Below, piece after piece: positions 1,647-18,621 of a stretch of 18,621 bases of DNA. How positions within the stretch are numbered: position 1 is the stretch's first letter; every line of letters starts with the position of its first letter. The notes beneath the pieces are model-generated. The model was not told where the DNA came from and did no database searches. It saw only the letters and a program-made list of their open reading frames with translations. A program made the position numbers and the translations under genes. This DNA comes from Fidelibacterota bacterium (GTDB lineage: Bacteria; Fidelibacterota; Marinisomatia; Marinisomatales; S15-B10): contig PBTS01000007.1 of assembly GCA_002729175.1 (NCBI GenBank), forward strand, positions 1 to 18,621. Reading direction: 5' to 3'.

Positions 1647-1675
1647 TACCTAAACCTTATTATTAAAAGGCGTGA

Positions 1676-1704
1676 AATTTACCGATACCGTTCGGAGCTT
1701 AAAA
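1676..1704 (-). promoter_or_regulatory. Possible sigma70 promoter for the CBM9/DUF5916 gene
   Basis: Minus strand TTTTAA-17 nt-TAAATT, about 30 nt upstream of the GTG. The -35 element is weak. Confidence 0.3.
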
Positions 1705-1802
1705 CCAGTGATAATTGACCATTCTTTTCCACCTGAGAGTCGGGAAGTTTTGTAAATTAAAGTGTTCGGTATAAATCATTTCGAAACAGAAATAGATCCG
1801 TC

Positions 1803-3547: not shown

Positions 3548-3667
3548 TTTGCCACTAAAAAAAGACTACTAAACTCAGAATCATACAACTGGGTGGCCCT
3601 ACCTGATTAATAAAAAGAAGTGTAAAGAGTTTGGATTAGGTCAAAATTTTGATTTAAGAGATAAAAA

Positions 3668-5329
3668 ATGAGTGAACGTGAAATTCTGGAAGTTGATGTT
3701 CTATTCGTTGGGGCAGGGCCGGCTAGTCTCAGCGGAGCCATCCACCTCAATCGCCTCCTTAAAGAAAATGGAAAGGAACCATCCATAGCCATTATTGAAA
3801 AGGGAGCTGAAGTGGGTGCTCACTCTTTTTCCGGAGCCGTTGTAGATCCAAGATCTCTTCAAGAACTGTTCCCGGATTATATGGATAGGAGTGTTCCGTT
3901 TGAATCCGAGGTTTTAGAAGAACACATGTACTACCTGACCTTATCCAGGAAGGTTCCTTTTCCCTTCATTCCAAAGTCAATGTCCCACCATGGATGTTAT
4001 GTCACCTCTATCGGCAAACTCACACGTTGGCTGGGTAACGTCTGCGAAGAGGAAGGTATAGATATATTCTGTGGTTTTTCGGGATCTGAGCTCTTATTTG
4101 ATGATGAAGAAGTCGTAGGGGTCCGATTGGGAGACCGCGGAATAGATAAGAATGGGCAACCAAAGCCTAACTACGAGGCGGGCGGGGATATCCATGCAAA
4201 AGTCACAGTGTTAGGGGAAGGAACACACGGAAATCTCACAAAGACACTCATAAACAAATTCGACCTAAGATCAGGTAAGAACTCCCAAGTCTGGGCATTG
4301 GGAGTAAAAGAGTTGTGGCAAATGCCCCCGGATACCGTCCCGGCAGGTTATGTAGCCCATACCATGGGATTCCCATTAGGACATGACATTTTTGGTGGAG
4401 GTTTTATCTATGGAATGAAAAATGATGTTTGGGATCTAGGAATTATTGTAGGTCTTGACTACAGTGATCCAAACGTTGATCCCCACCACGAACTTCAATC
4501 TTTGAAAACTCACCCATGGATCATGTCACTCCTAGATGGAGGAGAAATGATCGCCTATGGCGCTAAGACACTTCCCGAGGGAGGCTACTTCTCCATTCCA
4601 AAGCTCACTGTTGGTGGTGCTATGCTTATTGGTGACTCCGCCGGTTTTTTGAACGGGCAGCGATTGAAAGGAATTCATCTCGCTATGAAATCTGGTATGT
4701 TGGCGGCTGATGTGATTATGGACGCCTTAAACAATAACCGGTTTGATGATGAAATGCTCAGCTCTTTCGAGACAAAAGTACAGAATAGCTGGATTCATGA
4801 TGAGCTTTGGAAGGGAAGGAACTTCCACCAGGCTTTTGACAGAGGACTTCTGGCAGGCCTCTCTAACGCCGGTTTAGGACTAGTCACTGGTGGTCGAGGG
4901 TGGGGACTTGTCAATCGCTTACCGGCAAAAGAAGGTTACCGTCATATTACAAATCTCAATAAAAGCCCCTCAGAGGGAAAATATAATGACCGTTATGCTA
5001 ATTTGAAGTTCGATGGAAAATACTTGTTCGATAAGGTTACAGATGTCTATCACTCCGCAACATCGCACAATGAGGATCAAATCCCCCATTTACATGTTTA
5101 CGATACGGATATTTGCATTACTAAATGTGTTGAGGAATTTGGGAATCCATGTGAAAAGTTCTGTCCCGCTGACGTTTATGAGATTGTAACAGAAGAAAAT
5201 AATCGTCGATTACACATCAATTTCTCAAACTGTGTTCATTGCAAAACGTGCGATATAATGGATCCCTATCAGATCATAGACTGGGTGCCCCCTGAAGGTG
5301 GCGGTGGTCCAACCTGGATTAATCTATAA
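3668..5329 (+). CDS. Electron transfer flavoprotein-(ubi/mena)quinone oxidoreductase (ETF-QO)
   Basis: DVLFVGAGPA Rossmann motif, EKGAEVGAHSFSGA, LIGDSAGFLN..RLKGIHLAMKSGMLAA, and a C-terminal 4Fe-4S region CEKFCPADVYE...NCVHCKTCDIMDP..WVPPEGGGGP. Adjacent to etfBA. Confidence 0.95.
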   Translation: MSEREILEVDVLFVGAGPASLSGAIHLNRLLKENGKEPSIAIIEKGAEVGAHSFSGAVVDPRSLQELFPDYMDRSVPFESEVLEEHMYYLTLSRKVPFPFIPKSMSHHGCYVTSIGKLTRWLGNVCEEEGIDIFCGFSGSELLFDDEEVVGVRLGDRGIDKNGQPKPNYEAGGDIHAKVTVLGEGTHGNLTKTLINKFDLRSGKNSQVWALGVKELWQMPPDTVPAGYVAHTMGFPLGHDIFGGGFIYGMKNDVWDLGIIVGLDYSDPNVDPHHELQSLKTHPWIMSLLDGGEMIAYGAKTLPEGGYFSIPKLTVGGAMLIGDSAGFLNGQRLKGIHLAMKSGMLAADVIMDALNNNRFDDEMLSSFETKVQNSWIHDELWKGRNFHQAFDRGLLAGLSNAGLGLVTGGRGWGLVNRLPAKEGYRHITNLNKSPSEGKYNDRYANLKFDGKYLFDKVTDVYHSATSHNEDQIPHLHVYDTDICITKCVEEFGNPCEKFCPADVYEIVTEENNRRLHINFSNCVHCKTCDIMDPYQIIDWVPPEGGGGPTWINL

Positions 5330-5447
5330 AACGAACACTTTTAATAAGTTGTATCTAAGCTCAGATTACTGTTTAGCGGCTGTTAACCTGAGAATATTTA
5401 GACGAATGTGCCCTAGATCACCTAAAAACCCCTTTTCGAAAAAACAG

Positions 5448-5477
5448 TTGCCCCTAGACTAAATAATTGTCTATTTT
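5448..5477 (+). promoter_or_regulatory. Candidate sigma70 promoter with an inverted repeat in the spacer, upstream of the 620-aa gene
   Basis: TTGCCC-18 nt-TATTTT. The inverted repeat TAGAC-N9-GTCTA lies at 5455-5473. A strong SD, AGGAG, is at 5531-5535. Confidence 0.4.
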
Positions 5478-5541
5478 AAACCGTGTGGAGTGGAAGCTCT
5501 CTGCTTTGAGGCAAACAATTAAACTAACGTAGGAGTATATC

Positions 5542-7404
5542 ATGAAGAACAGAATGATATCAATTGCAACCTTTATACTTGCACTGATGGTCATTGGTGA
5601 AGCCCAGTCAATTACGGGTACTTACCAGTTGCACTCAGTGAGAGTTGTTTATAGGAACCATGTTCGGGCAGCTACCCATGCCGATGACGTGGACATTCAA
5701 GGTGTCTACGGTACATGGGTCGTACCTTACGGAGGCTCTATTGTGGAAGTGGATGCTGACGCCAACGGGGTAGCGGACTACAAACACCCACTTGTTGGAG
5801 GTCACATAGGCGCAAATGTGACAGTAGAATCTTTTCCGGAAGCCAGAGATCCTTTCTATTTACTTAATTATATCGGAGTGAATTTGACGGTGGGGCTTGA
5901 TCAGGAAGCAGGCACAGCCATCATTCCGGGTGATCCCACGGTACCAAGTACATATCCAACCACTGAAACAGCAAATTGTGTTACAGCTTTGACAGTAGCA
6001 GCCGTTACAGATAACCAGACGAACATCTACAAGGGACCTGTGGTTAATCCAAACGGAAATGTTGTCTGGGGTTTTGGTATCCAGCAATCGGATGTCTTTG
6101 ACTGGTTCAAAGCTATTGACCCGGCTAAACATTATCCAAAACAAAACCATGCACCAAAGGTCGCCGGTGTTGATTCTTCATGGGGAATGATAGTTGGAAA
6201 GGACGCTACTGAAAACACTGACGGCACCATGAGATTTAAAAAGGCCACAATTAGGTGGCACGCCTTCGATGGTTCTTACGCTACTGGCGGTTCTCCATAT
6301 GGTGTCGATGATGAAGGGAACTTGAACAGGCAGCTTGGTGTCTCTATCACTGCCGACAAAGTTACTATTCCGGGCATGGTTGCATGGGGAGCCGCAAAAG
6401 GCGCAACAGTCGTTGCAGGCGACTATCCAATGATCAATGGAAAAGGATATAATGGTGATAAACTGTCTTTCACCCCCGGTGAGCAGCTCATGACTCACAC
6501 TTCCGTGGGCGGAACATGGGATGGTGTTGGTTACATTGCTGATTTTCATGGTGCTGACGGCGTACCTTTCTCCGGTGATGAGCCATTAGCGTACACAGGC
6601 TATTATATAACGAAAAACTTCCTTTCCGCTTCTGGTGCATGGGCTGCAGCTTTGGCGGTTGCTGATCTTACAGATCCTACGGCCGCATTGACAGCTGCTG
6701 CCACAGCTATTACTACAGCCTTTGGCCTAGATGCAGCCGTTGCAGCTGCCGTTGTAAGCTCTGCAGCGACAACCCTTGGTGCTAGTCTTGCTGCTGCTGT
6801 TGCTGAATTAATGGCTGGTGGTATGGATGCAGCGACCGCTGGTGTGGCTGCCTTTGGTAAAGTTGCTGCCTCTGGGCCTACAGTACTTCTGGGTACTATG
6901 GCTGGCGCCGGGATTGTTGTAAACGACAGCGATAAGGACTTTGACTTGACTTCCACAACCGGTGGCCGCCTGCTGTTTAAGGTTGATGCCAATACAGTTG
7001 GTGGAATATGCTTGCCTGTTCAGCAGACACGGGATGTTTATGCTCATTTCACTAATACAGTGGACTGGGTAGCACCCACAGCACCACACAAGCCCCTTAC
7101 CATCTCGGACGAGAGCAATACCCCATCAAGGTTTGCTCTGCATAACAACTATCCGAATCCCTTCAACCCGGTCACTACCATCAGTTTTGACCTCCCTGAA
7201 GAGATATACACTGAAGTGGCGGTTTACAACATGATGGGGCAGAAAGTACGGACGCTCCATTCGGGTAATATGACCGCAGGGAGTCATCACATCTTCTTCG
7301 ATGGTATTGATGATCAGAACCAGCAGCTCGGTAGCGGTGTCTACTTCTATCGCGTTGTTTCTGGCGAATTCCAGGCCACCAAAAAGATGATGCTCATCAA
7401 ATAG
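5542..7404 (+). CDS. Secreted/surface protein with C-terminal T9SS type-A (Por secretion tail / FlgD-Ig-like) sorting domain; function unknown
   Basis: Signal peptide MKNRMISIATFILALMVIGEA|Q. The C-terminus PSRFALHNNYPNPFNPVTTISFDLP...VYNMMGQKVRTL...GSGVYFYRV..GEFQATKKMMLIK is the classic sorting-domain pattern. Internal Ala-rich segment. SD AGGAG. Confidence 0.88.
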   Translation: MKNRMISIATFILALMVIGEAQSITGTYQLHSVRVVYRNHVRAATHADDVDIQGVYGTWVVPYGGSIVEVDADANGVADYKHPLVGGHIGANVTVESFPEARDPFYLLNYIGVNLTVGLDQEAGTAIIPGDPTVPSTYPTTETANCVTALTVAAVTDNQTNIYKGPVVNPNGNVVWGFGIQQSDVFDWFKAIDPAKHYPKQNHAPKVAGVDSSWGMIVGKDATENTDGTMRFKKATIRWHAFDGSYATGGSPYGVDDEGNLNRQLGVSITADKVTIPGMVAWGAAKGATVVAGDYPMINGKGYNGDKLSFTPGEQLMTHTSVGGTWDGVGYIADFHGADGVPFSGDEPLAYTGYYITKNFLSASGAWAAALAVADLTDPTAALTAAATAITTAFGLDAAVAAAVVSSAATTLGASLAAAVAELMAGGMDAATAGVAAFGKVAASGPTVLLGTMAGAGIVVNDSDKDFDLTSTTGGRLLFKVDANTVGGICLPVQQTRDVYAHFTNTVDWVAPTAPHKPLTISDESNTPSRFALHNNYPNPFNPVTTISFDLPEEIYTEVAVYNMMGQKVRTLHSGNMTAGSHHIFFDGIDDQNQQLGSGVYFYRVVSGEFQATKKMMLIK

Positions 7405-7438
7405 AACCTCTCTTTAGGTTCATTTGATCTATTTTCAT

Positions 7439-7475
7439 AAGTTCAGCCCCGCCCTGTGCGGGGCTGAACTTTTTT
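7439..7475 (+). terminator. Rho-independent terminator after the 620-aa gene
   Basis: Perfect 14-bp stem AAGTTCAGCCCCGC / loop CCTGT / GCGGGGCTGAACTT, running into a T6 tract (7470-7475). Confidence 0.85.
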
Positions 7476-7482
7476 GTAATAG

Positions 7483-10400
7483 ATGAAAGTCATCAAATTA
7501 ATTGCTTTTCACATTTTGATCGCCGGTTTCCTGGCGGCTCAGAACGGATCAATATCCGGAACTGTTCTCGATGCCTCTACCAATGACCCACTCATTGCTG
7601 CCAACGTAACTGTTACGGGAGAAGCACTTACCGAAACTACAGGCAGTGCCACCGATGCTGGTGGCCAATATACCGTTACCAATCTGCCGTCCGGTCAGTA
7701 TACCCTTAAGGTGAACTATATTGGATACGAGAAACAAGAGGAGACTGTTACACTCGGTCCGGGGCAATCGTTAACAATTGATTTTAAACTGGCTCCTTCG
7801 GCTATTGAATACGACACATATGTGGTCACCGCCTCCCGCCGCAGGGAGCGGATCGAAGATGCTCCGGCCGCCATCAGCATCATCACGCAAAAATCTATTC
7901 GACGAGAGAGTAACACAAATCTTGGCGATTATCTAAAATCAGTGAAAGGGGTTGATTTCACCCAGTCTGGCATAGACAGTTACAACCTGAGCGCCCGGGG
8001 GTTTAACAGTTCTTTCAGTTCACGCCTATTGACCCTTACGGATGGAAGGATGGCGAATGTTCCGTCCCTCCGGCTTGTCGCCTATAATGTTATCCCTGTC
8101 TCCTTCGAAGATGTGCATCAGATCGAGGTAGTGCTGGGCCCCTCTTCTGCCCTCTACGGACCTAACGCCCATAGCGGTGTTCTTAATATTGTCACGCGCG
8201 CACCTAAAGATTCTAAGGGGACTACTTTCAATATACAGACGGGTTTGATTGCCCAGGAAAACGGAAAGCCGTTGAAAAAAATGACGTTTCGTCACGCTTC
8301 TGCCTGGAAAGATTTTGGGTTCAAAGTGTCTAGTGTGGCAATGAACGCCTATGACTGGGAGCATTACAATGATGACGAATTCGAAGGACACGATCCTGCC
8401 TTTCTCGGCAGACCCCATCTCACCCGTGACGGTATAGATAACGGTGGATCCAGTCCTGAACTTTTTAGCCCCACCTTCACGGAAGATATGCTCAAGGAAC
8501 TGACCGTTGGTGAAGTACCCAACAACGGTATTGATGACAACGGCAACGGTTTTATCGATGAAACCATGGATATGGTGGGCTACGCCTACGGCGACGGTAA
8601 AATAAACTGGTTTCCTTTCGGCACAGAACCCTATTCGCCCAAGATTACGCAGGAGATGGTTACCCAGGCTGCTAGTGACCCGTTCAACCGGCTCTGTGTG
8701 GATGAGGGAAACATCAGTTCATTCAGCGGTAACTGCCCCGGCGTTGTGCTCTGGGGCGTTACTTCAGACGCAATCGGGAAACAGTTCAAAGATGGTCTGG
8801 ATAACAACGGTAACGGCGCCATTGATGAAGGTATTGATACCGGTATTGATGGAAGTGACGAAGCATTTTTTGATGGTGTAGACAATGATGGGGACGGACT
8901 CATAGATGAGGATGATGAATCAATAGCCAACTTTTGGCTAAACCGCTTCGGCAGCTATGCACCGGGTGACACTACAAAAGCGGACAGATACGGTTTCGGT
9001 TTTGGTGACTACGAATATGATGATGACGGCAATATACTATTCGACACAAATCGAAACGGCGTCTTTGGAGACCCGGAAGATTTCAAGCTGACAAGAGGGG
9101 AATTGAGTCGTTGGATAAAGGATGCCAATGGAGACGGTTATGATGACTTCCCTGATTTCAATGTGGAAAACTACCGCTATGATCTTCGTTTTGATTATGA
9201 CCCAAATAGCGATATAAATCTCAGCCTTTCCCACGGATTGGCAAGAGCAAAAAACATCAACATCACCGGTATCGCCCGCTATCTGGCCGATGGCTGGGTC
9301 TATCAATACTACCAGAGTCGACTAAGGTACAAAAACTTCTTTTGGCAAACTTATCTGAACACCAGCATGTCCGGGAAATACAACCCTAAATATCCACTGG
9401 CTCACTCCCCTACCCGGAACCTTGCTACCGGTGGGACCATCTACGACCGATCCAAAAAGTTCAGCTCCCAGTTTCAGCATGCAACGGAATTAATGAATGG
9501 TGATTTCAGGTTTGTCTGGGGCGCCGATTATTTTCTCACCATGCCGAACACCCGGGGATCCATACTTTCTGACGATCAGTTGGTGAACGGCCGGGACGAT
9601 AATGGTGATGGTGAGGCCGGCTCCCCTATTTCCTGGGCTGACTATAATGACAATCTCCAACACGATAAAGGTGAGATATATACCAGGTGGGGTACCGATA
9701 ACGGTAAGCAGGATGGTGCGGTGGGACCAACAGATAACGTTAAAGGGGCTGTTGCGGACGGGATCGACAATGATGGTGACGGACTTATTGATGAAGGAAT
9801 CGATGAACAGGCTGAGGACAACCGCTATGTTGTTAATGAATTCGGTGCCTATTATCAGATCAATTGGAAACTCAATCCAAAATATGAGCTGATCCATGCC
9901 ACCCGTTTTGACGTTCACGACCGCCTAACGGACTTTATTGAATTCAACAATTACGACTACAGTTATAGCCCCACAAACTGGAAGTTCAACTTTGGAAAGA
10001 GAGACGGGCTTCAGATCTCGCCAAAGATCGGCCTGGTGTATCGTCCCCGGGAGAACCAGAACTTCAGGCTCACATGGGCCAAAGCTTTCAATACCCCTTC
10101 CAACCAAGCCCTGTTTCTGGATATTTTTGTAACCCGAGTAGCCACTTACAAGGTTTTTGCCCGGGGTGCTCATGAAGGGTACAACTACCCCAGAAGCGCC
10201 GACGGTGACATTTACTGGAAAAGCCCTTACGACGCATTTAATGTGATTGAATTTGATTCAACTACACACGTTTTCTTCTTCCCATCTACAGATCCCAAAA
10301 ATAGAGGATTCTTTAAGGACAATATTCCAGATCAGGGCGGTATTTATCCCGAAACGGTCCACACGCTGGAACTGGGTTACAAAGGCCGTATTACCCCCAC

Positions 10401-11094
10401 CATCTATGGAACCATGGATATCTTCAGGAGCAATTACAGTTCATTCGTTAGTGCTATCACTTTCATCACCCCCATTGTACTGAACAAGGCCGTGTTAACC
10501 ACCGACTATAACGGGGACGGGATAGTCAACGAAGATCCTGACGACATCCTGGATGAAGAAGATCTGGACGAATCATTTGACGTCTGGCTCACACATCTTG
10601 AAGGTATCTCATCCATGGATACCACTGCAGGATTCAATCCGCCTGTTGTTGTGGGTTACCTCAATTACGGAAATGTGAATATGGGTGGAATAGATATGAG
10701 TCTCTCATTTTTTCTCAACCGGTCGTGGTCCATGGATGTTAATTACTCTTATCTCAGCATGAGTGACTTCATCAACCCTATCACCAATGCAAAAGATCCA
10801 ATTAACGCTCCCAAGCATAAGGGAAGTCTCAAGTTGCAGTACGCTCCTCCGGACTCGAAGCTCGGCGGTAGTTTCAATCTTCGTTACGTGGACGCCTTCC
10901 CTTGGCAATCAGGTGTTTATTTCGGCACAATAGGTCCTTACACTATTTTTGATATCCACGCGCGGTATCAACTTATAGACAAAGCGGCCGTACTTTTGAG
11001 TGTCAGCAACCTTTTCAACGATTATCATATTGAGATTCAAGGCGGCCCGGCCATCGGTCGTCTGGTGATGCTCCGCCTACAGGCAGAGTTGTAA
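7483..11094 (+). CDS. TonB-dependent outer-membrane receptor with N-terminal carboxypeptidase-regulatory-like domain and large Asp/Gly-rich inserts
   Basis: Signal peptide, GSISGTVLDASTNDPLIAANV (CarboxypepD_reg-like), VVTASRR..IEDAPAAISII, plug motifs ARGFNSSFSSRLLTLTDGR and IEVVLGPSSALYGPNAHSGVLNIVT, barrel features SPKIGLVY, PETVHTLELGYK, VSNLFN. Confidence 0.93.
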   Translation: MKVIKLIAFHILIAGFLAAQNGSISGTVLDASTNDPLIAANVTVTGEALTETTGSATDAGGQYTVTNLPSGQYTLKVNYIGYEKQEETVTLGPGQSLTIDFKLAPSAIEYDTYVVTASRRRERIEDAPAAISIITQKSIRRESNTNLGDYLKSVKGVDFTQSGIDSYNLSARGFNSSFSSRLLTLTDGRMANVPSLRLVAYNVIPVSFEDVHQIEVVLGPSSALYGPNAHSGVLNIVTRAPKDSKGTTFNIQTGLIAQENGKPLKKMTFRHASAWKDFGFKVSSVAMNAYDWEHYNDDEFEGHDPAFLGRPHLTRDGIDNGGSSPELFSPTFTEDMLKELTVGEVPNNGIDDNGNGFIDETMDMVGYAYGDGKINWFPFGTEPYSPKITQEMVTQAASDPFNRLCVDEGNISSFSGNCPGVVLWGVTSDAIGKQFKDGLDNNGNGAIDEGIDTGIDGSDEAFFDGVDNDGDGLIDEDDESIANFWLNRFGSYAPGDTTKADRYGFGFGDYEYDDDGNILFDTNRNGVFGDPEDFKLTRGELSRWIKDANGDGYDDFPDFNVENYRYDLRFDYDPNSDINLSLSHGLARAKNINITGIARYLADGWVYQYYQSRLRYKNFFWQTYLNTSMSGKYNPKYPLAHSPTRNLATGGTIYDRSKKFSSQFQHATELMNGDFRFVWGADYFLTMPNTRGSILSDDQLVNGRDDNGDGEAGSPISWADYNDNLQHDKGEIYTRWGTDNGKQDGAVGPTDNVKGAVADGIDNDGDGLIDEGIDEQAEDNRYVVNEFGAYYQINWKLNPKYELIHATRFDVHDRLTDFIEFNNYDYSYSPTNWKFNFGKRDGLQISPKIGLVYRPRENQNFRLTWAKAFNTPSNQALFLDIFVTRVATYKVFARGAHEGYNYPRSADGDIYWKSPYDAFNVIEFDSTTHVFFFPSTDPKNRGFFKDNIPDQGGIYPETVHTLELGYKGRITPTIYGTMDIFRSNYSSFVSAITFITPIVLNKAVLTTDYNGDGIVNEDPDDILDEEDLDESFDVWLTHLEGISSMDTTAGFNPPVVVGYLNYGNVNMGGIDMSLSFFLNRSWSMDVNYSYLSMSDFINPITNAKDPINAPKHKGSLKLQYAPPDSKLGGSFNLRYVDAFPWQSGVYFGTIGPYTIFDIHARYQLIDKAAVLLSVSNLFNDYHIEIQGGPAIGRLVMLRLQAEL

Positions 11095-11113
11095 TCCACC
11101 GCCTTACCAATCC

Positions 11114-11142
11114 TTACAACTCTAGTCTGCCTGAAGTAAATT
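11114..11142 (+). promoter_or_regulatory. Possible own promoter of the CDF gene, giving a near-leaderless mRNA
   Basis: TTACAA-17 nt-TAAATT, then 10 pyrimidines (TCTCTCTCCC), then ATG. There is no SD. Confidence 0.35.
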
Positions 11143-11152
11143 TCTCTCTCCC

Positions 11153-12049
11153 ATGAGCGGCCATTTCACTTCTCAAAAAGCTCTCAAGACAGCGGCTCTG
11201 CTCCTGAGCATTACATTCCTTGCTGAGCTCCTGGGTGGCATTGTATTCGGCAGCCTCAGCCTCATTTCAGATTCGTTCCACGTCATTGCCGATCTCGGTT
11301 CTATTCTTATTGCTTCTTTTGCCCTTTCTGTAGCTCACAAACGTCACCCGACCCAACAAATGGCCTTCGGCTACCACCGGCTGGAGGTGATGAGTGCCCT
11401 GTTTAACGGCATTGTTCTCAGCATCATTTCAGCAGTGATTTTTCTGGAGGCGTGGGAACGGTTTCGAAATCCCGGCGAGATCCAAGCGGGAGGTGCTCTG
11501 GTAATCGCTGTTATTGGACTTGTGGTAAACCTTATTGTCATCCGCTTCTTTCACCATGCTCCAGACCGCCACCATGACGTAAACATCAGGAGCGCATACC
11601 TCCACATCATGGGGGACATCCTTGCTTCTGTTTCTGTGGTTGTGGGGATCACGGCAATTAAGCTTTTTGATATGCCCATCATCGATCCAGTTGTAGCCGC
11701 TTTTGTGGCATTGCTTTTGCTCATTGGGGCTACCAGAGTTCTTTATTCAAGTGCGGAAATTTTACTCCACAAATCACCCCAGGATATTGACCGTGTCCGG
11801 CTTCGGGTACTCCAGATTGACGGCGTAAAAGACTTGTTAGATGTAAGACTTTGGCAAGTCTGTTCTCATTTGACCGTGGGAACGGCACATGTGGTAGTGT
11901 CAGTGGATTCCCTGGAAGCTACCGGGCCCATCAAACAGAACATCCGATCCATCATTCAGGAAGAGTTCGATGTGAGAGATATTACGCTGGAATGTGAGAC
12001 GGAAAAGGGCTCTGAAGAACACTCACACCGCTTTGAACACCAGCATTAG
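11153..12049 (+). CDS. Cation diffusion facilitator (CzcD/ZitB-like Zn/Co/Cd exporter)
   Basis: CDF signature SLSLISDSFHVIAD (TM2 HxxxD), FGYHRLEVMSALFNG, NIRSAYLHIMGD (TM5 HxxxD), a His-rich loop HHAPDRHHD and a His-rich tail. Confidence 0.93.
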   Translation: MSGHFTSQKALKTAALLLSITFLAELLGGIVFGSLSLISDSFHVIADLGSILIASFALSVAHKRHPTQQMAFGYHRLEVMSALFNGIVLSIISAVIFLEAWERFRNPGEIQAGGALVIAVIGLVVNLIVIRFFHHAPDRHHDVNIRSAYLHIMGDILASVSVVVGITAIKLFDMPIIDPVVAAFVALLLLIGATRVLYSSAEILLHKSPQDIDRVRLRVLQIDGVKDLLDVRLWQVCSHLTVGTAHVVVSVDSLEATGPIKQNIRSIIQEEFDVRDITLECETEKGSEEHSHRFEHQH

Positions 12050-12864
12050 CCTGCACCTTTTGGCCTAACCAGCCAAGCTATCACCAACATAAAACCAAAA
12101 GTTACCACAATGGCAGCCCCTGTTGGAATATCAAGTAGGAGCGATGCTAGCATGCCCAGAACACTTCCGACAAGTCCAAAGATCCATCCAAATATCAGCC
12201 TGGATGATACGCCTTCCACAAAAAGAAGTGCCCCTATAGCTGGTACGATAAGAAAAGAAAACACTAGAAGAACACCAGCGATTTTTACAGAACTGGTTAC
12301 CACAAATCCGAAGGTAATATAGAAAAGGAAATCCCACAGCCTTCTGTTTACATTTGATTTGCCATTGTTTTGGCTATCTGATACTGCAAGAAACTCTGTC
12401 CGGAACCTCCAATGAAAACCGCCGATGACTGCGTAGAGCATGAAAGTTTGGAACACTTCCTTGGGTGACACAAAAAGTATGGATCCCACCAAAAGGTGGT
12501 TGAGATGTTCGGCTCCTTCGGGTGACTTGCTGAAAAGCAAGATCATTACAGCAGCGGAGACGACGTAAGTGATCCCGATGATAGCTTCTTGGGGCACACG
12601 TTCATTCACAGAACGTGTATAAGAAAACAGAAGGGCACCAAGAAATGTGAATCCCAATGCCAAAAAATACATAATGCCTTCTGCATGGTCGAATCCTAAA
12701 AGTAAACCTACAGCCATCCCCAGCGCTGCTACCTGTGCTAAAGCCAAATCAACGAAAATAACACCGCGCGTCACAACGTGAAGACCAAGATAGACATGTA
12801 TACCTGTAAGCACAAACGCCGCCATAAGTGGCCAAATAATTATGTCAAAATACTCCAGAATCAT
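12046..12864 (-). CDS. Metal ABC-type permease (ZnuB/MntB, ABC-3 family)
   Basis: Multi-TM protein with GLHVVTRGVIFVDLALAQ, QEAIIGITY, LLVGSILFV, SVKIAGVLLVFSFLIVPA and DIPTGAAIV. ATGA overlap with the binding-protein gene. Confidence 0.9.
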   Translation of the reverse strand: MILEYFDIIIWPLMAAFVLTGIHVYLGLHVVTRGVIFVDLALAQVAALGMAVGLLLGFDHAEGIMYFLALGFTFLGALLFSYTRSVNERVPQEAIIGITYVVSAAVMILLFSKSPEGAEHLNHLLVGSILFVSPKEVFQTFMLYAVIGGFHWRFRTEFLAVSDSQNNGKSNVNRRLWDFLFYITFGFVVTSSVKIAGVLLVFSFLIVPAIGALLFVEGVSSRLIFGWIFGLVGSVLGMLASLLLDIPTGAAIVVTFGFMLVIAWLVRPKGAG

Positions 12865-13739
12865 TCCAGCGTCTTCTTAAGTATTTCGAGGTTGTAATGG
12901 ATCATCTCAATATAGGAGTTAGCCAGTGATCTGGCCCCAACAGATTGTGCCATTTCGATAATTTCAATACCTGTTTTTTCAACCAGGAATTTAGGTGCTT
13001 TGTCGCTGAAATACGGCTCCATGGCGATTACGTTGATCTGGTGTTCCCTAATTAAAGATATGAGTGTTTCGATGTGACTCGGCGTCGGCATGATTCCCGG
13101 TTTCGGCTCAACAAACTGAACAATATCTAGTCCGAACCGGTTAGCGAAATAGGGCCAAGTATTATGATAAAAAATCAGTTTCATTCCGCGTAATGAAGCA
13201 TACTTTTCGCGCCAAGATTGTAGATTTGAATCAATGGTCTTTGAAAACTTCCTGTGGTTTTCCCAAAAAATATTGGCCCCTGCTGGATCAGCCTCGGACA
13301 GCACCTCTGCAATAGTAGAACCTATAATCTTACCGTTCTCTGGGTCTAACCAGTAGTGCGGATTCCCAAAGCGATGGATATCGCCCATGCTAGCATCAAT
13401 CTTTCTAGTGGGAATTTCAAGCCTTGGAATATTTGCTGAACAATCCACAATTATCAGTTTTCGGTTTCGAGAGCCATCTATAATCTGCTGTGCCCATCGA
13501 TCTAGTTCCATCCCCACCTTAAGGTAAATATCAGCCCGCTTGACTTTTATCATGTATGACGGCAGGACTTCTACATAGTGCGGATCCTGCGTCCCCCGGG
13601 CAATACTCACCACCTTCACTCGTTCACCGCCAATAGTTGATGCAATGTCCGCTAAATCAGTAGTGGAAGTTACCACAGATACTTTGGCGGATAGGCTGTT
13701 GAGGACAAGGGCCACTATCAGCATAATTCTATTCGTCAT
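12861..13739 (-). CDS. Metal-binding periplasmic protein (ZnuA/TroA/cluster A-I family), 292 aa
   Basis: The likely start is ATG 13739 (MTNRIMLIVALVLNSLSA|KVSVVTS, signal peptide), 1 nt after the upstream stop. Motifs QDPHY, GDIHRFGNPHYWLDP, YHNTWPYF, EPKPGIMPTPSH. Confidence 0.92.
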   Translation of the reverse strand: MTNRIMLIVALVLNSLSAKVSVVTSTTDLADIASTIGGERVKVVSIARGTQDPHYVEVLPSYMIKVKRADIYLKVGMELDRWAQQIIDGSRNRKLIIVDCSANIPRLEIPTRKIDASMGDIHRFGNPHYWLDPENGKIIGSTIAEVLSEADPAGANIFWENHRKFSKTIDSNLQSWREKYASLRGMKLIFYHNTWPYFANRFGLDIVQFVEPKPGIMPTPSHIETLISLIREHQINVIAMEPYFSDKAPKFLVEKTGIEIIEMAQSVGARSLANSYIEMIHYNLEILKKTLE

Positions 13740-13740
13740 C

Positions 13741-14838
13741 TTAAAACCTGTGGGGCTTGTGGGGGCCAAGTGACCAGATGAGCTGCCCCACCACAGAAAA
13801 TACAGGGTCTTCATCGCCGTGATATTCCTGGTGCAGGCGGACACGTAAGACAGACGATTCTTCGACGGGGCTAAAGCCAACAAAAAGACCGAACGAATTG
13901 TAAGGCGCTTCATCCAGTTCACTGGCGTAGTCCACGATAAACCCGGCATTCCACACCTTGTTGATTTGCATATTGAGCCAGCCGTAAGCAATGGTGGTGG
14001 TTCCTTCATGTTCTTCTGAAAGGTGGTCTTCGTGGTATTTCTCTTCTTCGTGTTCCTCCTTTCCACTATTCTGCATGACCTCCCCCTGAACAGTAAATGA
14101 ACGATACTTGTCCGGCCGCCATTTGAACTTCATGTCCACACCTGAAACCGTCCCCTCTGACTCATTGATGGCGCGGTAGTGATTCAGGCCAGTTTCAATA
14201 TGGGAGATATCATTCAGCTCGAAAAAGTTGGAAAAACGGAATGCCACGACGCCAGTGTTTCCATTATCTTCCTCCTTTTTCTCTGACCGTTTTTCGTCGT
14301 CGTACAACTCCCTGTTTCCCTCATTCTTATCATGGGAGTGTTCGTCGTGTCCGTGTCCCCCCATGCCATTCTGCATGGCGCTTAAGGATAGTTTGCTATA
14401 CCAAGGCAGAGGCGCCAGCGTACTCAATTCCGCTCCCGGTGAAGACCACATCTCCTCACCAAGCAGTGCCTGTACCGGCAGCGATGCTAAGATATAGTGA
14501 TAGGTGTGGGCATGCTCCCTGTTAATCTTCCCGAAATCGGGTCTGAACTTGCCGGCCCTAAGTCCCAGGTTCAGCGGCAATCCTCGCTCCACGGTGAGGA
14601 ACGCTTCCTCCACATCCACGGCCCCCTCGCTGTCGTGTATATGAAGAAACAAATCTGCTCGAGCAAAAGGATTAACGTAACCCTGAGCGGCTATTTCCAA
14701 TCCTGAGGTGGAAAGCGCAAGTGATTCTTTGTCTCCTTTGGCAAGAAGATCCCCAAGGAAGCTAATATCTGGATTAACAGTTGTTTGTGAAAAAGATAGT
14801 GACCTAATTACAGTCAGAAGAACAAATGTTCTTCGCAT
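13741..14838 (-). CDS. His/Glu-rich outer-membrane beta-barrel protein, probable metal (Zn) uptake channel
   Basis: Signal peptide, then NPDISFLGD, EIAAQGYVNPFARAD, VEEAFLT, LRAGKFRPDFGKINREHAH, His/Glu loops GHGHDEHSHD and EEHEEEKYHEDHLSEEHE, and C-terminal QLIWSLGPHKPHRF (terminal Phe). SD AGGGGA lies 8 nt upstream. Confidence 0.8.
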   Translation of the reverse strand: MRRTFVLLTVIRSLSFSQTTVNPDISFLGDLLAKGDKESLALSTSGLEIAAQGYVNPFARADLFLHIHDSEGAVDVEEAFLTVERGLPLNLGLRAGKFRPDFGKINREHAHTYHYILASLPVQALLGEEMWSSPGAELSTLAPLPWYSKLSLSAMQNGMGGHGHDEHSHDKNEGNRELYDDEKRSEKKEEDNGNTGVVAFRFSNFFELNDISHIETGLNHYRAINESEGTVSGVDMKFKWRPDKYRSFTVQGEVMQNSGKEEHEEEKYHEDHLSEEHEGTTTIAYGWLNMQINKVWNAGFIVDYASELDEAPYNSFGLFVGFSPVEESSVLRVRLHQEYHGDEDPVFSVVGQLIWSLGPHKPHRF

Positions 14839-14845
14839 TAAGCTG

Positions 14846-14943
14846 ATCCCCTATTCTAAGGTTAGCCACCCCCGAGAATGGAACCTCATCCCACTCCGTC
14901 AAAGATGGTCAGATTACGACAGCAAGATTAGCTTAGAGGGGAT
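14846..14943 (-). promoter_or_regulatory. Anti-Shine-Dalgarno pairing between the last codons of the leader ORF and the RBS of the barrel gene
   Basis: mRNA AUCCCCU-CUAAG (14943-14932, codons A-S-P-L-S) is complementary to CUUAG-AAU-AGGGGAU (14860-14846). This gives 12 bp with a 3-nt bulge and covers the SD. Confidence 0.65.
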
Positions 14944-15278
14944 GCCCTTGAGGGCGGGAGCGGAGAGAGGATTTCTGAGGAAAAAACTTGTTTGGGGAAA
15001 ATATGTGCTCTGTCTGCATTCTCGGAGAAAAGTCCGCTGCCAATTTCAATAGCTGTGAAATCACGAATTCGCGCGCGACAACAGTCATGGCGGAGATTAG
15101 TGTTATTGTGTTCGGAGGTGTCGCAATCTACCTTACATAAACCGAACTCTGAAAAAGAGAACCAGTTGTGACTGGCCAGGTCGTGAGTGACATCAACCAA
15201 CGGGGTAATAGCGACCCACATTGCCATCAGAATGGCGACAAAAGTTCTTTCAGGGCTTCTTCCTGTTAGCAGACTCAT
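14928..15278 (-). CDS. DUF2946-like Cys/His-rich leader protein with C-terminal RAPP-like motif (116 aa)
   Basis: ATG 15278 lies 7 nt after the DUF3467 stop. MSLLTGRSPERTFVAILMAMWVAITPLVDVTH (TM/signal), HDLASH, CKVDC, HNNTNLRHDCC, ending SPLPPSRASPLS*. It sits directly upstream of metal-uptake genes. Confidence 0.75.
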   Translation of the reverse strand: MSLLTGRSPERTFVAILMAMWVAITPLVDVTHDLASHNWFSFSEFGLCKVDCDTSEHNNTNLRHDCCRARIRDFTAIEIGSGLFSENADRAHIFPKQVFSSEILSPLPPSRASPLS

Positions 15279-15285
15279 AAAATAG

Positions 15286-15603
15286 TTAATTCGGCAATGA
15301 TCCTTCAGGTGGCTTGACTCCAAATGGCTCAAAAGATTCATTCTTCGGCACAGAAATCTCGCCGTATTGCTTTTCATACTTTTCAATGTTATCCGACAGA
15401 GCCCTTTGAAAACTTTTAGCATGAGATGGGGCCATGATGATTCTTGAATTCACTTTCGCTTTCGGCATCCCCGGTAGGAGCCGGGTGAAATCCATGACAA
15501 ACTCAGCTGGTGAATGGGTAATAACCACAAAATTGGCGTAATCCCCACTACCGACTTTCTCATCAAGCTCAATGTTGATCTGCTGTTCTTTCTTTTTATT
15601 CAC
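15286..15603 (-). CDS. DUF3467 domain protein
   Basis: QINIELDEKVGSGDYANFVVITHSPAEFVMDF..LLPGMPKAKVNSRIIMAPSHAK...ALSDNIEKYEKQYGEI matches the DUF3467 pattern. GTG start overlaps the upstream TGA (GTGA). Confidence 0.9.
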   Translation of the reverse strand: MNKKKEQQINIELDEKVGSGDYANFVVITHSPAEFVMDFTRLLPGMPKAKVNSRIIMAPSHAKSFQRALSDNIEKYEKQYGEISVPKNESFEPFGVKPPEGSLPN

Positions 15604-16043
15604 GATTTTTTCTTTCTCCCTCTTCTTGACTTTTTCTTTTTCTCCAGAAGTGGATTTTTAGCCTCTTCTTTATTACGGAGATTAAATTCTTCCCAATCTT
15701 CTTCAAGTCCTTCCCAAACATCTATCTCTTGTGTGGTGTCTTTTTCTACGGTTTGTACCTCTTCTTGGAAGAGAGAAAAAGTGTCTTTTTTCTTTTCAAA
15801 ATCCTGCGGGTCCACCTCCTCCTGATCGGTGGGATCGAGACGTTCAATCTCATCCTTGTAGATTTTCATATCAAAAAAGTCTATATCCTTCACAATACCG
15901 TTGGCCACAAGGTATTCAATGAAGTCTAGGTATCTCGCATTCTGTAGATCGGTCTTGCAGCTAGCACAAACCAAAGACTCTTTAAGATCCTCTTCTTTAA
16001 GGGGAGTCTTGCATTCTGGGCAGATCAAACCTTCTGATAGCAT
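15600..16043 (-). CDS. Hypothetical zinc-ribbon protein (CxxC...CxxC), acidic middle, basic tail; 147 aa
   Basis: The likely start is ATG 16043, with SD GAGG upstream. MLSEGLICPECKTPLKEEDLKESLVCASCKT; C-terminus KKKKSRRGRKKKS. Confidence 0.8.
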   Translation of the reverse strand: MLSEGLICPECKTPLKEEDLKESLVCASCKTDLQNARYLDFIEYLVANGIVKDIDFFDMKIYKDEIERLDPTDQEEVDPQDFEKKKDTFSLFQEEVQTVEKDTTQEIDVWEGLEEDWEEFNLRNKEEAKNPLLEKKKKSRRGRKKKS

Positions 16044-16079
16044 TATATTTCCTCGTTTTATCCTCAGTGAGAGGGCGAT

Positions 16080-16108
16080 AATATAAACGGCGACCCACCC
16101 CTCGTCAA
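16080..16108 (-). promoter_or_regulatory. Near-consensus sigma70 promoter for the Zn-ribbon/DUF3467/metal-uptake operon
   Basis: Minus strand TTGACG-17 nt-TATATT in the 82-nt intergenic gap, 36 nt upstream of ATG 16043. Confidence 0.75.
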
Positions 16109-16125
16109 CAGGTATTTCAACATTT

Positions 16126-17337
16126 TTATTTCCAATGTTTTTCCCACAGTTGAAGAAAAAGGCTCTCCTCTGCAGCTGAGAACGATTGATCTCGTCTTCC
16201 CTTTGCCGCTTTTGCTGCCTCAATAAACTTCTGGAAATCGTATTTCTGCAATTCCCTATTCATGACCCATGAGAAAGGCGGAATCTCCTTCGGCGGAAAC
16301 CCGGTAACCACCACATTACAGGCCGGTCCCACTGTGGTGCCTGTATTAAACTGGGTCCCGATGGCTGATTTTGCATGATCCCCCATAAAGAGCCCTACAA
16401 ACAGGCTTTTCGTGTCGACCTGTTTTCCGTCCACTATAACTTTGACAGAAGAATAATTGTTTTTTAAATCACTGTTATTGGTTCCAGCGCCAAGATTAAC
16501 CCATTCCCCCACGTAGGAATGTCCCAGAAAACCGTCGTGCTGTTTATTACTCCAGCTCTGGAAAATGGTTTCAGCAACTTCTCCCCCAACCTTACAACCG
16601 GGACCCATGGTTGTTTCTCCGAAAATCTTTGCTCCCGCTTTAATGAGAGAACCATTTCCTATAAAAAGAGGCCCTTCCAGGTAAGCACCGGGTTGAACGG
16701 TCACTTTTTCGCTAATGATAACCGGTCCCGATTCACCATCCAGAATGGCTCCTGCCTTCACTCTGGCACCCTCAGCCACATAAATGTTATCTTGATTCAG
16801 TAGATGGGTGCCATCATCAATATCACCTTTCACTTCTCCCATGGGAAAGTGGGCAGCATCCGCCTTAATAGCATGGCCATTTTCATTGATACAGTCCCAA
16901 AGGTAAATGATTGATTTAAGATCATTTTTCTCTTCCCCAATATCTTCAGGGCAAGATGTATTTAGAGGACCTCCTGCCTCCAACCACTTTTGACCCATTT
17001 CAGAGGAGAAATGTGCTCCAACAAAAGCACCGTCTGATGTGAATATTCCCTCTTTCGATTCCAGAAGATTCAGGGACGGTTCAGTCCAAAAGACAGTACT
17101 GTTAAGCCAGAGGCCGTCTTCCACAGTCTCAGGGTTCACTATCAAGCCAAATCGTTCTTTGGTAACAGTTTCCTGTTCCTCCCTAACAAAGAGGGAGATG
17201 GAATCATCAGGACGAAGCCTATTCAAGCGCTCCAGGAATGTGAAAGCACCGCAGCGAAGATCAAACAAGGGCCGTGTCAGGGCAATAGGGGCAAGCTTCT
17301 CAGCCGAAGCCCGGGTTTCGTAAAGATAGATATTCAT
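16126..17337 (-). CDS. GlmU-like putative sugar nucleotidyltransferase/acetyltransferase (NTP_transf_4 + left-handed beta-helix)
   Basis: N-terminal LAPIALTRPLFDLRCGAFT, hexapeptide repeats (GPVII, EGPLFIG, TMGPGCKVGGEV), and SNKQHDGFLGHSYVGEWVNLGAGTNNSDLKNNY. Confidence 0.88.
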   Translation of the reverse strand: MNIYLYETRASAEKLAPIALTRPLFDLRCGAFTFLERLNRLRPDDSISLFVREEQETVTKERFGLIVNPETVEDGLWLNSTVFWTEPSLNLLESKEGIFTSDGAFVGAHFSSEMGQKWLEAGGPLNTSCPEDIGEEKNDLKSIIYLWDCINENGHAIKADAAHFPMGEVKGDIDDGTHLLNQDNIYVAEGARVKAGAILDGESGPVIISEKVTVQPGAYLEGPLFIGNGSLIKAGAKIFGETTMGPGCKVGGEVAETIFQSWSNKQHDGFLGHSYVGEWVNLGAGTNNSDLKNNYSSVKVIVDGKQVDTKSLFVGLFMGDHAKSAIGTQFNTGTTVGPACNVVVTGFPPKEIPPFSWVMNRELQKYDFQKFIEAAKAAKGRRDQSFSAAEESLFLQLWEKHWK

Positions 17338-17879
17338 AAGTTTAACAACTTTTGTACTGCCAGATAACTTCGTTCAAGAAATTCACTTTTCGAACTGTCA
17401 ATCTCCACATTGAAAAAATGTTCCGAAAATTTGTTAGCAAAACCAATACGCATGGGTGCTTTAGACATAAGTGCCAGATAAGCTGACGAAAGATTAAACA
17501 CCGGATGCATGTCCACAACGGCATCGTAGGAATGGTCCAAAATGCGGTCAAGCATAGACTGACTCGGCAATCGGAACCAGTTCAATTCATCTTCTTCATA
17601 CACCTTCACACTTTCCGGAAGTGAGTCTTGAAAGGTGTGGTAGAGTGATTTATCCATAAGAAAGTCTATTGCTGTGTGGCCGTTCTGGTAGATTGATTTC
17701 AGGAAGTAACGGGCGATCCTGGAGTTCTCACGACCTTCAGGTAGGATAATGAGTGCAGAGCGAACCCCTGAGCCTCCCTTTCGGATAGCACCAGTGAAAT
17801 CCGGTTTCTCCAATTTTCGTATCAGCCGAAACCAAGTGACGGTACCGCGCGTTTTCCATTGCTCCAGTAGGCGGCGCAT
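17334..17879 (-). CDS. DUF6913-like / glycosyltransferase family 9 N-terminal-like protein
   Basis: ELNWFRLP, HSYDAVVDMH, LALMSKAPMRIGF. ATGA overlap with the GlmU-like gene. I prefer ATG 17879 over TTG 17888 as the start. Confidence 0.65.
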   Translation of the reverse strand: MRRLLEQWKTRGTVTWFRLIRKLEKPDFTGAIRKGGSGVRSALIILPEGRENSRIARYFLKSIYQNGHTAIDFLMDKSLYHTFQDSLPESVKVYEEDELNWFRLPSQSMLDRILDHSYDAVVDMHPVFNLSSAYLALMSKAPMRIGFANKFSEHFFNVEIDSSKSEFLERSYLAVQKLLNL

Positions 17880-17991
17880 GCGGCGCAATATAGGACATTT
17901 GTTGAAAAAAGAAACTTTTTAGTTACTGACGATTTTTCAACAGAACTCTGTATCTTTACAGGCTAAAAATGCACAGTTGTACAAACACAAG

Positions 17992-18621
17992 ATGCCTGTA
18001 GGAAAGAAAATACTCTGGAGCGGACTTGGCTGGGTTCTGGCAGGTCCTATCGGCGCGCTGGTGGGATTTTCGCTGGCGTCCTTTTCGGAACAGCCACTGG
18101 AAGGTTCACCCTACAGAACACACTATGGCCCGAGGAAAAGTCCCAAAGATTATCCCCACACCCGTCCCGGCGATTTTGCTGTTTCCTTACTTGTTCTTCT
18201 GGGCCAAGTCATGAAAGCAGATGAGAAACTTTTGAAATCGGAACTGGTATTTGTTAAACAGTTCCTTACAAAACATTTTGGACAGGAAAATGCAAGAGAT
18301 CTCATGATACTCTTCAAAGACATTTTGAAACAGGACTACCCACTCCCTTCCATCTGCCGTCAGATCAAGAAAGAGATGGATCATGCGACCCGGCTGGAAC
18401 TGATACACGGGCTGTTTGGGCTCGCTCATGCTGATGGTGAGCTCCATTCGTTAGAAGATAATGTAATCAGGAAGATCTGCAATTATATTGGTGTTTCTCC
18501 TTCCGATTTCGAATCCATGAAAGCCATGTTCGTTGGTCAGACCGCTGGCGCTTATACCATACTTGAGGTGGATTCCTCCGCCTCCGATATCGAAGTAAAG
18601 CGGGCTTACAGAAAAATGGCC
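17992..18621 (+). CDS. djlA: DjlA-like co-chaperone (TM + TerB-like + C-terminal J domain), truncated by the window end; not in the ORF track
   Basis: Manual translation: MPVGKKILWSGLGWVLAGPIGALVGF...DFAVSLLVLLGQVMKAD...SELVFVKQF...LFGLAHADGELHSLE...AYTILEVDSSASDIEVKRAYRKMA (start of the J domain). Open for 210 codons. Confidence 0.9.
   Translation, partial: MPVGKKILWSGLGWVLAGPIGALVGFSLASFSEQPLEGSPYRTHYGPRKSPKDYPHTRPGDFAVSLLVLLGQVMKADEKLLKSELVFVKQFLTKHFGQENARDLMILFKDILKQDYPLPSICRQIKKEMDHATRLELIHGLFGLAHADGELHSLEDNVIRKICNYIGVSPSDFESMKAMFVGQTAGAYTILEVDSSASDIEVKRAYRKMA

Follow-up and report, generated by a model that had tools for sequence, protein, structure and literature searches.

Does the end of a small leader open reading frame (ORF) hide the ribosome-binding site (RBS) of the gene that follows it, and could a ribosome halted on the last codons of the leader uncover that site? 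This question is raised by an 18,621-nt stretch of a Fidelibacterota bacterium (GenBank assembly GCA_002729175.1, contig PBTS01000007.1, positions 1 to 18,621; hereafter the window), in which a leader of 116 amino acids (aa) ending with an R-A-S-P motif precedes the gene of a 365-aa probable outer-membrane protein and a ZnuA/ZnuB-type metal-uptake operon, with a spacer of 89 nt between the leader stop codon and the next gene on the same strand. An earlier note on this DNA had proposed that the RASP codons also serve as the anti-Shine-Dalgarno (anti-SD) strand of the next gene, that a ribosome stalled on them would free the RBS and switch uptake on, and that metal-dependent release would switch it off. 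The whole operon and the leader lie on the minus strand, and paired coordinates run from high to low. We found that the leader tail can pair with the whole RBS of the next gene, in excess of several controls, and that pairing of this kind is a trait of the leader family. Our preferred reading, to which we give somewhat less than an even chance, is that a metal-uptake operon is here controlled by its leader, that the helix masks the RBS of this operon, and that the leader is a nascent-chain metal sensor similar to CruR and CutF.

The complementarity is present to the letter as described in the earlier note. On the minus strand, AUCCCCUCUAAG (14943-14932), which spans the last base of the Ala codon and the Ser, Pro and Leu codons and reaches into the final Ser codon, faces CUUAGAAUAGGGGAU (14860-14846), and the resulting 12 base pairs (bp) with a 3-nt bulge were scored by RNAduplex at −13.9 kcal/mol. 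When the leader tail, defined as the R codon to stop+6, was paired by the same program with the RBS window (−22 to +2), a helix longer than the claimed one was obtained, comprising 16 bp as 6+6+4 at −18.0 kcal/mol, and the added block joins GGGC (14947-14944) with GCUU (14843-14840) just before the AUG. This duplex is the strongest among the 40 loci compared, and no foreign RBS or tail equals it. Within the locus, 0/55 equally long upstream windows of the leader ORF pair with the RBS as well as the tail does, the best of seven intergenic (spacer) windows reaches −12.1 kcal/mol, and 3/200 dinucleotide shuffles of the tail reach −18.0 kcal/mol. The claimed burial of the AGGGGA SD by the leader tail is thus borne out as complementarity that exceeds the within-locus and shuffle controls and covers the whole RBS. 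The genome's 16S rRNA has CCUCC at its 3′ end.

Homologues of the 365-aa protein were taken from related genomes and from 65 loci of a species-level genome collection, which together cover Marinimicrobia/Fidelibacterota, Zixibacteria, Ignavibacteria, Aminicenantes and others. Fifty of the 65 loci were examined, 14 being left out because the start codon was not placeable by the QTT motif and one having no tblastn hit. Leaders were searched with the pattern R[AGS][PS]P in the last 12 residues, which leaders with other motifs would escape. An upstream ORF of about 84-124 aa that ends with R[AGS]PP, 2-6 residues before the stop, was found in 39/50 loci, and the 11 loci that have no such leader include Aminicenantes loci and one 73%-identical relative. 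With the window included, the motif tally over 40 loci is RAPP 25, RGPP 11, RSPP 3 and RASP 1. Aminicenantes homologues of the outer-membrane protein with no RxPP leader upstream occur among L062-L066, L068, L069 and L076; in the loci of Zixibacteria, Ignavibacteria and Terriglobales the leader is shorter and of the CxxC type, and its Cys-to-Arg spacing is the same.

The window leader carries an N-terminal membrane anchor, His32, His37, Cys48-x3-Cys52, His57 and Cys66 (C66-C67), has no CXXC motif, and ends with PPSRASPLS. Leaders of the family share the N-terminal anchor helix, a His-x4-His at the anchor's end and usually C-x3-C-x4-H, and H32, R111 and P114 are invariant in the leader alignments A1 (13 sequences) and A4 (30 sequences). 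The distance from the conserved Cys to the Arg of the motif is 43-49 residues in 40/40 loci and 45 in the window; this Cys stands in C-x-W in most Marinimicrobia-type leaders and is the second Cys of CxxC elsewhere, CxxC being present in nine distant leaders. No Pfam or NCBIfam family matched the window leader, and a profile search with the leader alignment retrieved 31 proteins, none of which is named or has a Pfam domain. Pfam PF11162 (DUF2946) matched 0/13 leaders of A1, and among 12 further leaders scanned, three CxxC-type ones from other phyla scored 13-15 bits (E 0.05-0.14) against a cut-off of 23.7. Comparison of A4 (Marinimicrobia-type) with A5 (CxxC-type leaders) by hhalign gave 91.6% probability over 31 columns only, namely the anchor and the His motif. 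The frame of the window leader is intact and its His and Cys residues and 45-residue spacing are kept, and the leader looks maintained, apart from RASP.

In the cross-locus permutation test, matched tail/RBS pairs averaged −11.67 kcal/mol, compared with −9.03 ± 0.48 kcal/mol for permuted pairs, and 0/20,000 permutations reached the observed value. The test used 23 cluster representatives obtained by single linkage at 0.68 (0.6 lumped nearly all loci), and these crude clusters make it conservative but inexact. Since a tail pairs better with the RBS of its own locus than with that of another, SD masking by the 3′ end of the leader is a family trait; the complementarity is thus not absent in relatives, as the earlier note had allowed it might be. 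The tail beats every upstream ORF window in 14/40 loci, where <1 is expected, and the fraction of controls that equal the tail is ≤0.05 in 15/40 loci for dinucleotide shuffles and in 10/40 loci for synonymous recodings. By partition function, the SD pairs chiefly (≥0.4) with the 40-nt tail window in 17/40 loci, with two equally long upstream windows in six and three loci and with the spacer in two, counts made by eye from the per-locus table. A modelled ribosome (a 28-nt footprint forced open) placed at the motif lowered the RBS opening energy by 1.74 kcal/mol on average, whereas one placed 30 nt upstream lowered it by 0.26 kcal/mol and one 60 nt upstream by 0.24 kcal/mol (Wilcoxon P at the cluster level 0.007 and 0.002, respectively), and drops of at least 2 kcal/mol were seen in 13/40 loci at the motif versus three and one upstream.

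The anti-SD strands vary widely in sequence and always lie within −6 to +26 nt of the P-site codon; perfect helices of 11 bp and 13 bp in two loci are examples. In the closest clade, the minimum free energy (MFE) structure of 7/7 loci holds a 9-10-bp helix between the stop-codon region and GGAGAUCAG. Its 5′ strand consists of the last sense base, UGA and five or six further bases (+10 to +20 from the P-site), and three different pyrimidine pentamers occur there that all still pair with GGAGA. As in the window, this masking helix encloses an internal hairpin, the sequence of which is unlike that of the window's hairpin. The window has the stop codon UAA, not UGA, which would put an A opposite a C in the older stop-codon register, and a stronger helix is formed on the motif codons instead. 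The claim that the same nucleotides make both the arrest motif and the mask is therefore true of the window, but as a lineage-specific arrangement and not as a rule of the family. A compact spacer hairpin, AUCCCC-loop-GGGGAU, which lies apart from the SD, was observed in the RGPP-VV clade (L034, L037-L040, L043, L055 and L056), with one compensatory C-G to U-A change and, in some loci, a short U-rich run after it.

RASP is the sole such variant among the 40 loci. The identical RASPLS tail and spacer are found on three metagenome contigs, and contigs of four RNA-library runs match the region with no differences in the helix arms; RASP is therefore regarded as real. Leaders 90-93% identical to the window leader end with LRAPPLS and more distant ones with RSPPLT or RAPPLI, and to judge from these relatives RASP is a recent Pro-to-Ser change from RAPP. 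The published RAPP-type arrest core is R-[A/G]-P-P near the C-terminus, with position 2 partly permissive for S, D and P and the third-position Pro in the P-site. In the saturation mutagenesis described for this core, every substitution of that Pro abolished arrest or raised read-through in ApcA and ApdA, and all but Gly did so in ApdP. The window leader has the build of such peptides, being a small protein (116 aa) with an anchor, directly upstream of the next gene and on the same strand, and in the position of the core it reads R-A-S-P.

According to the reading preferred here, a ribosome reaching the C-terminal RxPP motif of a leader of this family would stall, and the stalled footprint (about −12 to +15 nt around the P-site) would cover or undermine the pyrimidine-rich strand that otherwise pairs with the SD, which would let the outer-membrane protein gene and then the coupled ZnuA and ZnuB genes be translated. 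Metal bound to the Cys/His segment, which trails the arrest point by about 45 residues, would bring about release and termination, the helix would re-form, and uptake would fall. In this genome the masking strand has moved onto the motif codons and the motif has changed from RAPP to RASP. Here the mask is probably functional and the stall, by analogy with other arrest peptides, probably weak, and opening may rest mostly on ordinary passage and termination of leader ribosomes. That the leader arrests ribosomes and binds metal, which way the control runs and which ligand is sensed are the parts that we infer, and zinc is probably the metal on the strength of context, namely ZnuA/ZnuB downstream, the CDF neighbour described below and the His-rich loops of the outer-membrane protein.

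Several results weigh against this reading. When the 171-nt region that the earlier note had put forward for folding was folded, it was no more stable than its shuffles (z = −0.17), and the MFE structure did not use the claimed arm but paired the SD with another anti-SD, AUCCUCU (14972-14966). The probability of the claimed pairs was 0.08, 0.65 and 0.04 in contexts of 181, 261 and 501 nt, and the best structure containing the masking helix lay 0.3-1.5 kcal/mol above the MFE. Since the SD partner shifts with the folding context, the masking helix is not a robust thermodynamic prediction. Accessibility of the SD, which the earlier note had named as evidence against its proposal, was nevertheless not what the predicted structures gave: in each of the three contexts most of the pairing probability of the four SD Gs was retained, 11 of the 12 values being 0.84-0.99 and that of G14848 in 501 nt 0.44. 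Occlusion of the SD is thus robustly predicted by these models, and its partner is not. The modelled stalled ribosome cut the RBS opening cost in the window only from 7.27 to 5.54 kcal/mol, a small gain (1.7 kcal/mol), since the SD can find new partners in other C-rich stretches; these alternatives lie at 14994-14998, 14977-14982 and 14966-14972, some of which would be covered by trailing ribosomes in a cell. Of the proposal that a ribosome stalled on RASP frees the RBS, there stands the finding that a ribosome at the motif lowers the opening cost more than one elsewhere; the size of the gain in the window and the stall itself are the doubtful parts. The window has Ser at the P-site position, where substitutions abolished arrest in other peptides, which makes a strong stall on RASP doubtful, and by those rules, which come from other peptides and other ribosomes, the RASP stall should be weak or inactive.

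Further points on the same side come from the family and from the leader protein. No dominant tail-SD pairing is seen in 23/40 loci; the arrest codons and the anti-SD overlap mainly in the window lineage, the anti-SD being at the stop codon in the closest clade; and the RGPP-VV clade has just three invariant closing pairs (Pro codons with the SD) besides its separate spacer hairpin. Among 600 synonymous recodings of RASPLS-stop, 8.5% reach −18.0 kcal/mol (mean −14.0 kcal/mol), so that a G-rich SD opposite a Pro/Ser/Leu tail accounts for much of the complementarity. In P0140, a leader 77% identical to that of the window, the tail is frame-shifted and has no RxPP motif, which is either leader decay in some strains or a sequencing error. 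An AlphaFold2 (AF2) model of the leader built from 30 sequences has no folded sensor domain and is confident in the anchor helix only (helix at 9-38; block-mean predicted local distance difference test (pLDDT) 92-96 over residues 11-30; mean pLDDT 63), a model that we take as neutral on a metal site, neither for nor against it. In the literature searched, no experiment on this leader family was found.

Three other explanations have to be set against the mask of a sensor leader. The complementarity could be a chance result of pyrimidine-rich Pro/Ser/Leu codons facing a purine-rich SD, with no function, to which the synonymous recodings, the regional z-score, the several other C-rich partners that compete for the SD and the chance-level second pairing described below all lend weight. 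Chance does not, however, account for the permutation test, for the 14/40 loci in which the tail ranks first among within-locus windows, for the position-specific effect on RBS opening, or for a helix kept in all seven loci of the closest clade despite sequence change; given these family statistics pure chance is unlikely, and we leave it a small probability. Alternatively, the helix could be a plain mask for translational coupling, and arrest would not be regulated in this genome; the downstream gene would then depend on ribosomes finishing the leader, and metal control would be exerted by, for example, Zur. For this genome in particular we find such coupling plausible, if on the whole doubtful as the full explanation: a change from Pro to Ser at the P-site position was non-permissive in the three RAPP or RAPG peptides for which tests are described, RASP is both recent and fixed in this population (window, three metagenome contigs and four RNA runs), one relative lost its tail by frameshift, and by geometry a decoding and a terminating ribosome both cover the whole 5′ arm. 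What speaks against it is the intact leader ORF with its His/Cys residues and 45-residue spacing, together with the origin of the arrest rules in other peptides and ribosomes.

The remaining alternative, which we hold to be rather unlikely as the principal route, is Rho-dependent attenuation as in CruR. A ribosome at the leader end would shield a C-rich Rho site, its departure would lead to termination in the 89-nt spacer, and the SD pairing would be secondary. In its favour, the base composition of the window leader over its last 78 nt is C 0.38 and G 0.10, a stronger skew than in any other of the eight loci shown; tails of the family average C 0.32 and G 0.17 compared with 0.24 and 0.21 further upstream; and C minus G exceeds 0.15 in 17/40 tails and in 0/40 upstream segments. 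Since a tail with C>G is common in the family and the genome encodes Rho, a CruR-type route is open. CruR itself uses it, with a C>G tract inside its upstream ORF (uORF) (PMC9426467), a scan for promoters and terminators over 14600-15800 found nothing in the spacer and no intrinsic terminator, and the published accounts of ApcA, ApdA and ApdP give no predicted SD-sequestering hairpins. On the other side, Pro, Ala, Ser and Arg codons, and also the anti-SD, impose part of the C-richness, the Rho route does not need a locus-specific complementarity between tail and RBS, and RNA-library contigs cross the spacer in three runs, although contigs cannot show transcript ends. Two full-length matches to the Rho RNA-binding domain were observed (genome G000, contigs C36 and C1), and in this 1.8-Mb bin with an estimated contamination of 7% one of them may belong to another organism. 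The Rho route and SD masking are not exclusive and may coexist.

The earlier note had also described a second, imperfect pairing that crosses the first helix. It is present as written, with 12 of 14 positions pairing at −18.9 kcal/mol, but it stands at chance level: with the arms widened to 24 nt the energy is −20.8 kcal/mol, and 13% of 500 dinucleotide shuffles of the C-rich arm equal or better it (mean −17.7, standard deviation 2.5). No comparative support for this pairing was obtained.

The features of the locus are collected in the table below.

Table. Coordinates of the leader, the RNA elements and the operon genes in the window.
Feature	Position	Strand	Remarks
R-A-S-P codons AGG GCA UCC CCU	14937..14948	-	R 14948-14946, A 14945-14943, S 14942-14940, P 14939-14937, then L, S, stop; slot of RAPP/RGPP/RSPP in relatives
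5′ arm of masking helix (anti-SD)	14932..14947	-	14943-14932 of the earlier note plus GGGC 14947-14944; RNAduplex
3′ arm of masking helix	14840..14860	-	covers the RBS of the 365-aa gene; SD core AGGGGA 14852-14847, 8 nt before the AUG at 14838
Irregular intergenic hairpin	14866..14908	-	rich in G-U pairs; lies inside the masking helix; seen in the MFE of the R-codon-to-AUG segment
5′ arm of second pairing	14957..14970	-	C-rich arm
3′ arm of second pairing	14884..14897	-	inside the intergenic hairpin
C-rich, G-poor tract (leader 3′ end and first part of spacer)	14905..14990	-	candidate Rho loading region; source of alternative anti-SD partners
DUF3467 gene	15286..15603	-	directly upstream of the leader ORF
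Leader ORF, 116 codons plus stop	14928..15278	-	codons 15278-14931, stop 14930-14928; ORF list and family alignments A1, A4
Probable outer-membrane barrel gene (regulated gene), 365 aa, secreted	13741..14838	-	start codon 14838-14836; alignment A2
ZnuA-type periplasmic metal-binding protein	12861..13739	-	PF01297, E 5e-55; start read from ORF, 1 nt past the stop of the 365-aa gene
ABC-3 (ZnuB-type) permease	12046..12864	-	PF00950, E 9e-32

The 365-aa protein has His-rich acidic loops (His/Glu-rich) and a C-terminal Phe, and its family (alignment A2) shares a conserved QTT-NP, invariant at the start of the mature part, and an end of the form GPHKPH-[RQ]-F/Y. Ends of this type are typical of outer-membrane barrels. 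The protein matched no Pfam or NCBIfam family; a search at E≤0.001 gave 259 homologues, of which the 120 listed are all named 'hypothetical' and carry no Pfam domain. From these sequence features it is the probable outer-membrane component of the metal-uptake system. A CDF exporter gene (Cation_efflux and ZT_dimer; 11153-12049, plus strand) is convergent with the uptake operon, and uptake and export genes for the same metal class thus stand tail to tail. The ATG of the leader (15278-15276) lies 7 nt past the stop codon of the DUF3467 gene (15288-15286), where no SD-like motif was seen, so that the leader may be translated by coupling to DUF3467. In the 73%-identical relative (L003/L041), DUF3467 adjoins the outer-membrane protein gene with no leader between them. 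An Rfam scan of the whole window gave no family at the gathering score, and hence no known riboswitch. RNA-library contigs of three runs from three studies bridge the leader, the spacer and the 5′ end of the next gene, and in several runs the contigs end and overlap at two shared 30-nt places (14765-14794 and 15286-15315), a pattern that resembles branching of the assembly graph between strains and not the ends of transcripts.

Three elements of this locus are new: a leader family that is unrecognised by Pfam and NCBIfam models and is linked to a Znu operon and to an outer-membrane protein lacking annotation, the statistical support for SD masking in an RxPP family, and a naturally occurring RAPP-to-RASP allele whose motif overlaps the mask. 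To our knowledge, copper is the only metal for which post-transcriptional sensing through a nascent peptide has been shown (CruR and CutF). The family described here is compact (about 110 aa), occurs in several phyla in front of a ZnuA/ZnuB operon, and has a fixed ruler of 43-49 residues and a computable RBS mask, properties that allow a direct test of whether zinc is sensed likewise. The natural allelic series RAPP, RGPP, RSPP and RASP, along with the moved anti-SD strands, could serve to dissect the balance between arrest strength and RNA structure, and an abundant marine protein family that carries no annotation gains a likely role in metal uptake. A bolder version of the preferred reading, which we consider speculative and unlikely to hold as a whole, would make this the first zinc-linked family of nascent-chain metal sensors, combining the logic of CruR with an SD mask of the SecM/CutF type; in this lineage mask and motif would be fused on the same 12 nt, and a Pro-to-Ser trade-off would have re-tuned the set-point of zinc uptake. 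Judged from the window's own letters, replacing C by U at 14942 would give the helix two further pairs and at the same time weaken the arrest.

Among known systems, CruR (DUF2946; Bordetella pertussis bp2923) is described as a uORF that carries an export signal, a CXXC and, three residues from its end, a RAPP, CXXC and RAPP being 45 residues apart with a tightly conserved spacing (Roy et al., 2022; PMC9426467). In the absence of copper, RAPP-dependent arrest allows expression of the downstream genes, and copper relieves the arrest, upon which transcription is terminated by Rho in the spacer; the uORF contains a C>G tract (PMC9426467). The same paper states that no riboswitch is known for Cu or Zn. 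The window leader resembles CruR in being the first gene of a metal-uptake operon and in having an anchor and a Cys about 45 residues before the C-terminal motif. It differs in that the output of CruR, as described, is Rho-dependent termination in a 162-nt spacer and not SD unmasking, and that the CruR ligand is copper at CXXC, whereas the window leader has no DUF2946 match, no CXXC, and RASP for the motif. The CruR arrest was demonstrated in vitro by Fujiwara et al. (2025; PMC12992588), with codons three and four of the motif in the P and A sites, and they describe RAPP/RGPP small secretory proteins upstream of metal genes, including Streptomyces uORFs; the main text of that paper makes no mention of zinc or ZnuA. 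Like ApdA, ApdP, ApcA and the Streptomyces uORFs, the leader family consists of small membrane or secretory proteins with a C-terminal RxPP, and some of those published proteins stand before metal genes and have conserved Cys/His. Unlike the family studied here, ApcA, ApdA and ApdP have no predicted SD-sequestering hairpin in the published account.

CutF of the Rhodobacter capsulatus cutFOG operon is an exported copper sensor, in which a C-terminal Pro-rich motif and an SD-shielding stem-loop control the translation of cutO (Ozturk et al., 2023; PMC9973294). CutF-like proteins, retrieved by iterative sequence searching with CutF seeds and grouped in 29 clusters, stand upstream of transition-metal genes, with spacers mostly of <100 nt (PMC9973294). 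By the filters of Ozturk et al. (2023), and not by a seed search, the window leader is CutF-like: it has 116 aa, PP in the tail EILSPLPPSRASPLS, an anchor helix and an 89-nt spacer. Both are small exported proteins with a Cys metal motif and a Pro-containing, stalling-like C-terminal motif, and the stem-loop that in CutF shields the SD of the next gene, and is opened by translation of the leader's end, has a predicted counterpart in the window that exceeds the controls but depends on the folding context. In contrast, CutF senses copper, the metal prolongs stalling and a detoxifying oxidase is switched on; since the window operon is for uptake, a control of opposite sign is expected. The CutF motif, as reported, is not RAPP and causes no stall by itself, and the 5′ arm of the window's mask lies in the coding tail, not in the spacer.

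SecM-secA offers the third point of comparison: arrest at R-A-G/P near the C-terminus blocks formation of an SD-sequestering stem-loop, and release closes it (in Sakiyama et al., 2021; PMC7897499). SecM, as described, senses Sec-dependent pulling and not metal, has no sequence relation to the window leader and acts on a different downstream gene. The kind of system to which the window belongs is therefore already published, in CruR, in CutF and in the RAPP/RGPP uORFs next to metal genes. The logic put forward in the earlier note, in which a stall switches uptake on and metal switches it off, agrees with that of CruR, and its likeness to attenuation of the SecM/MifM type holds in that the unmasking of an SD has its counterparts in CutF and SecM.

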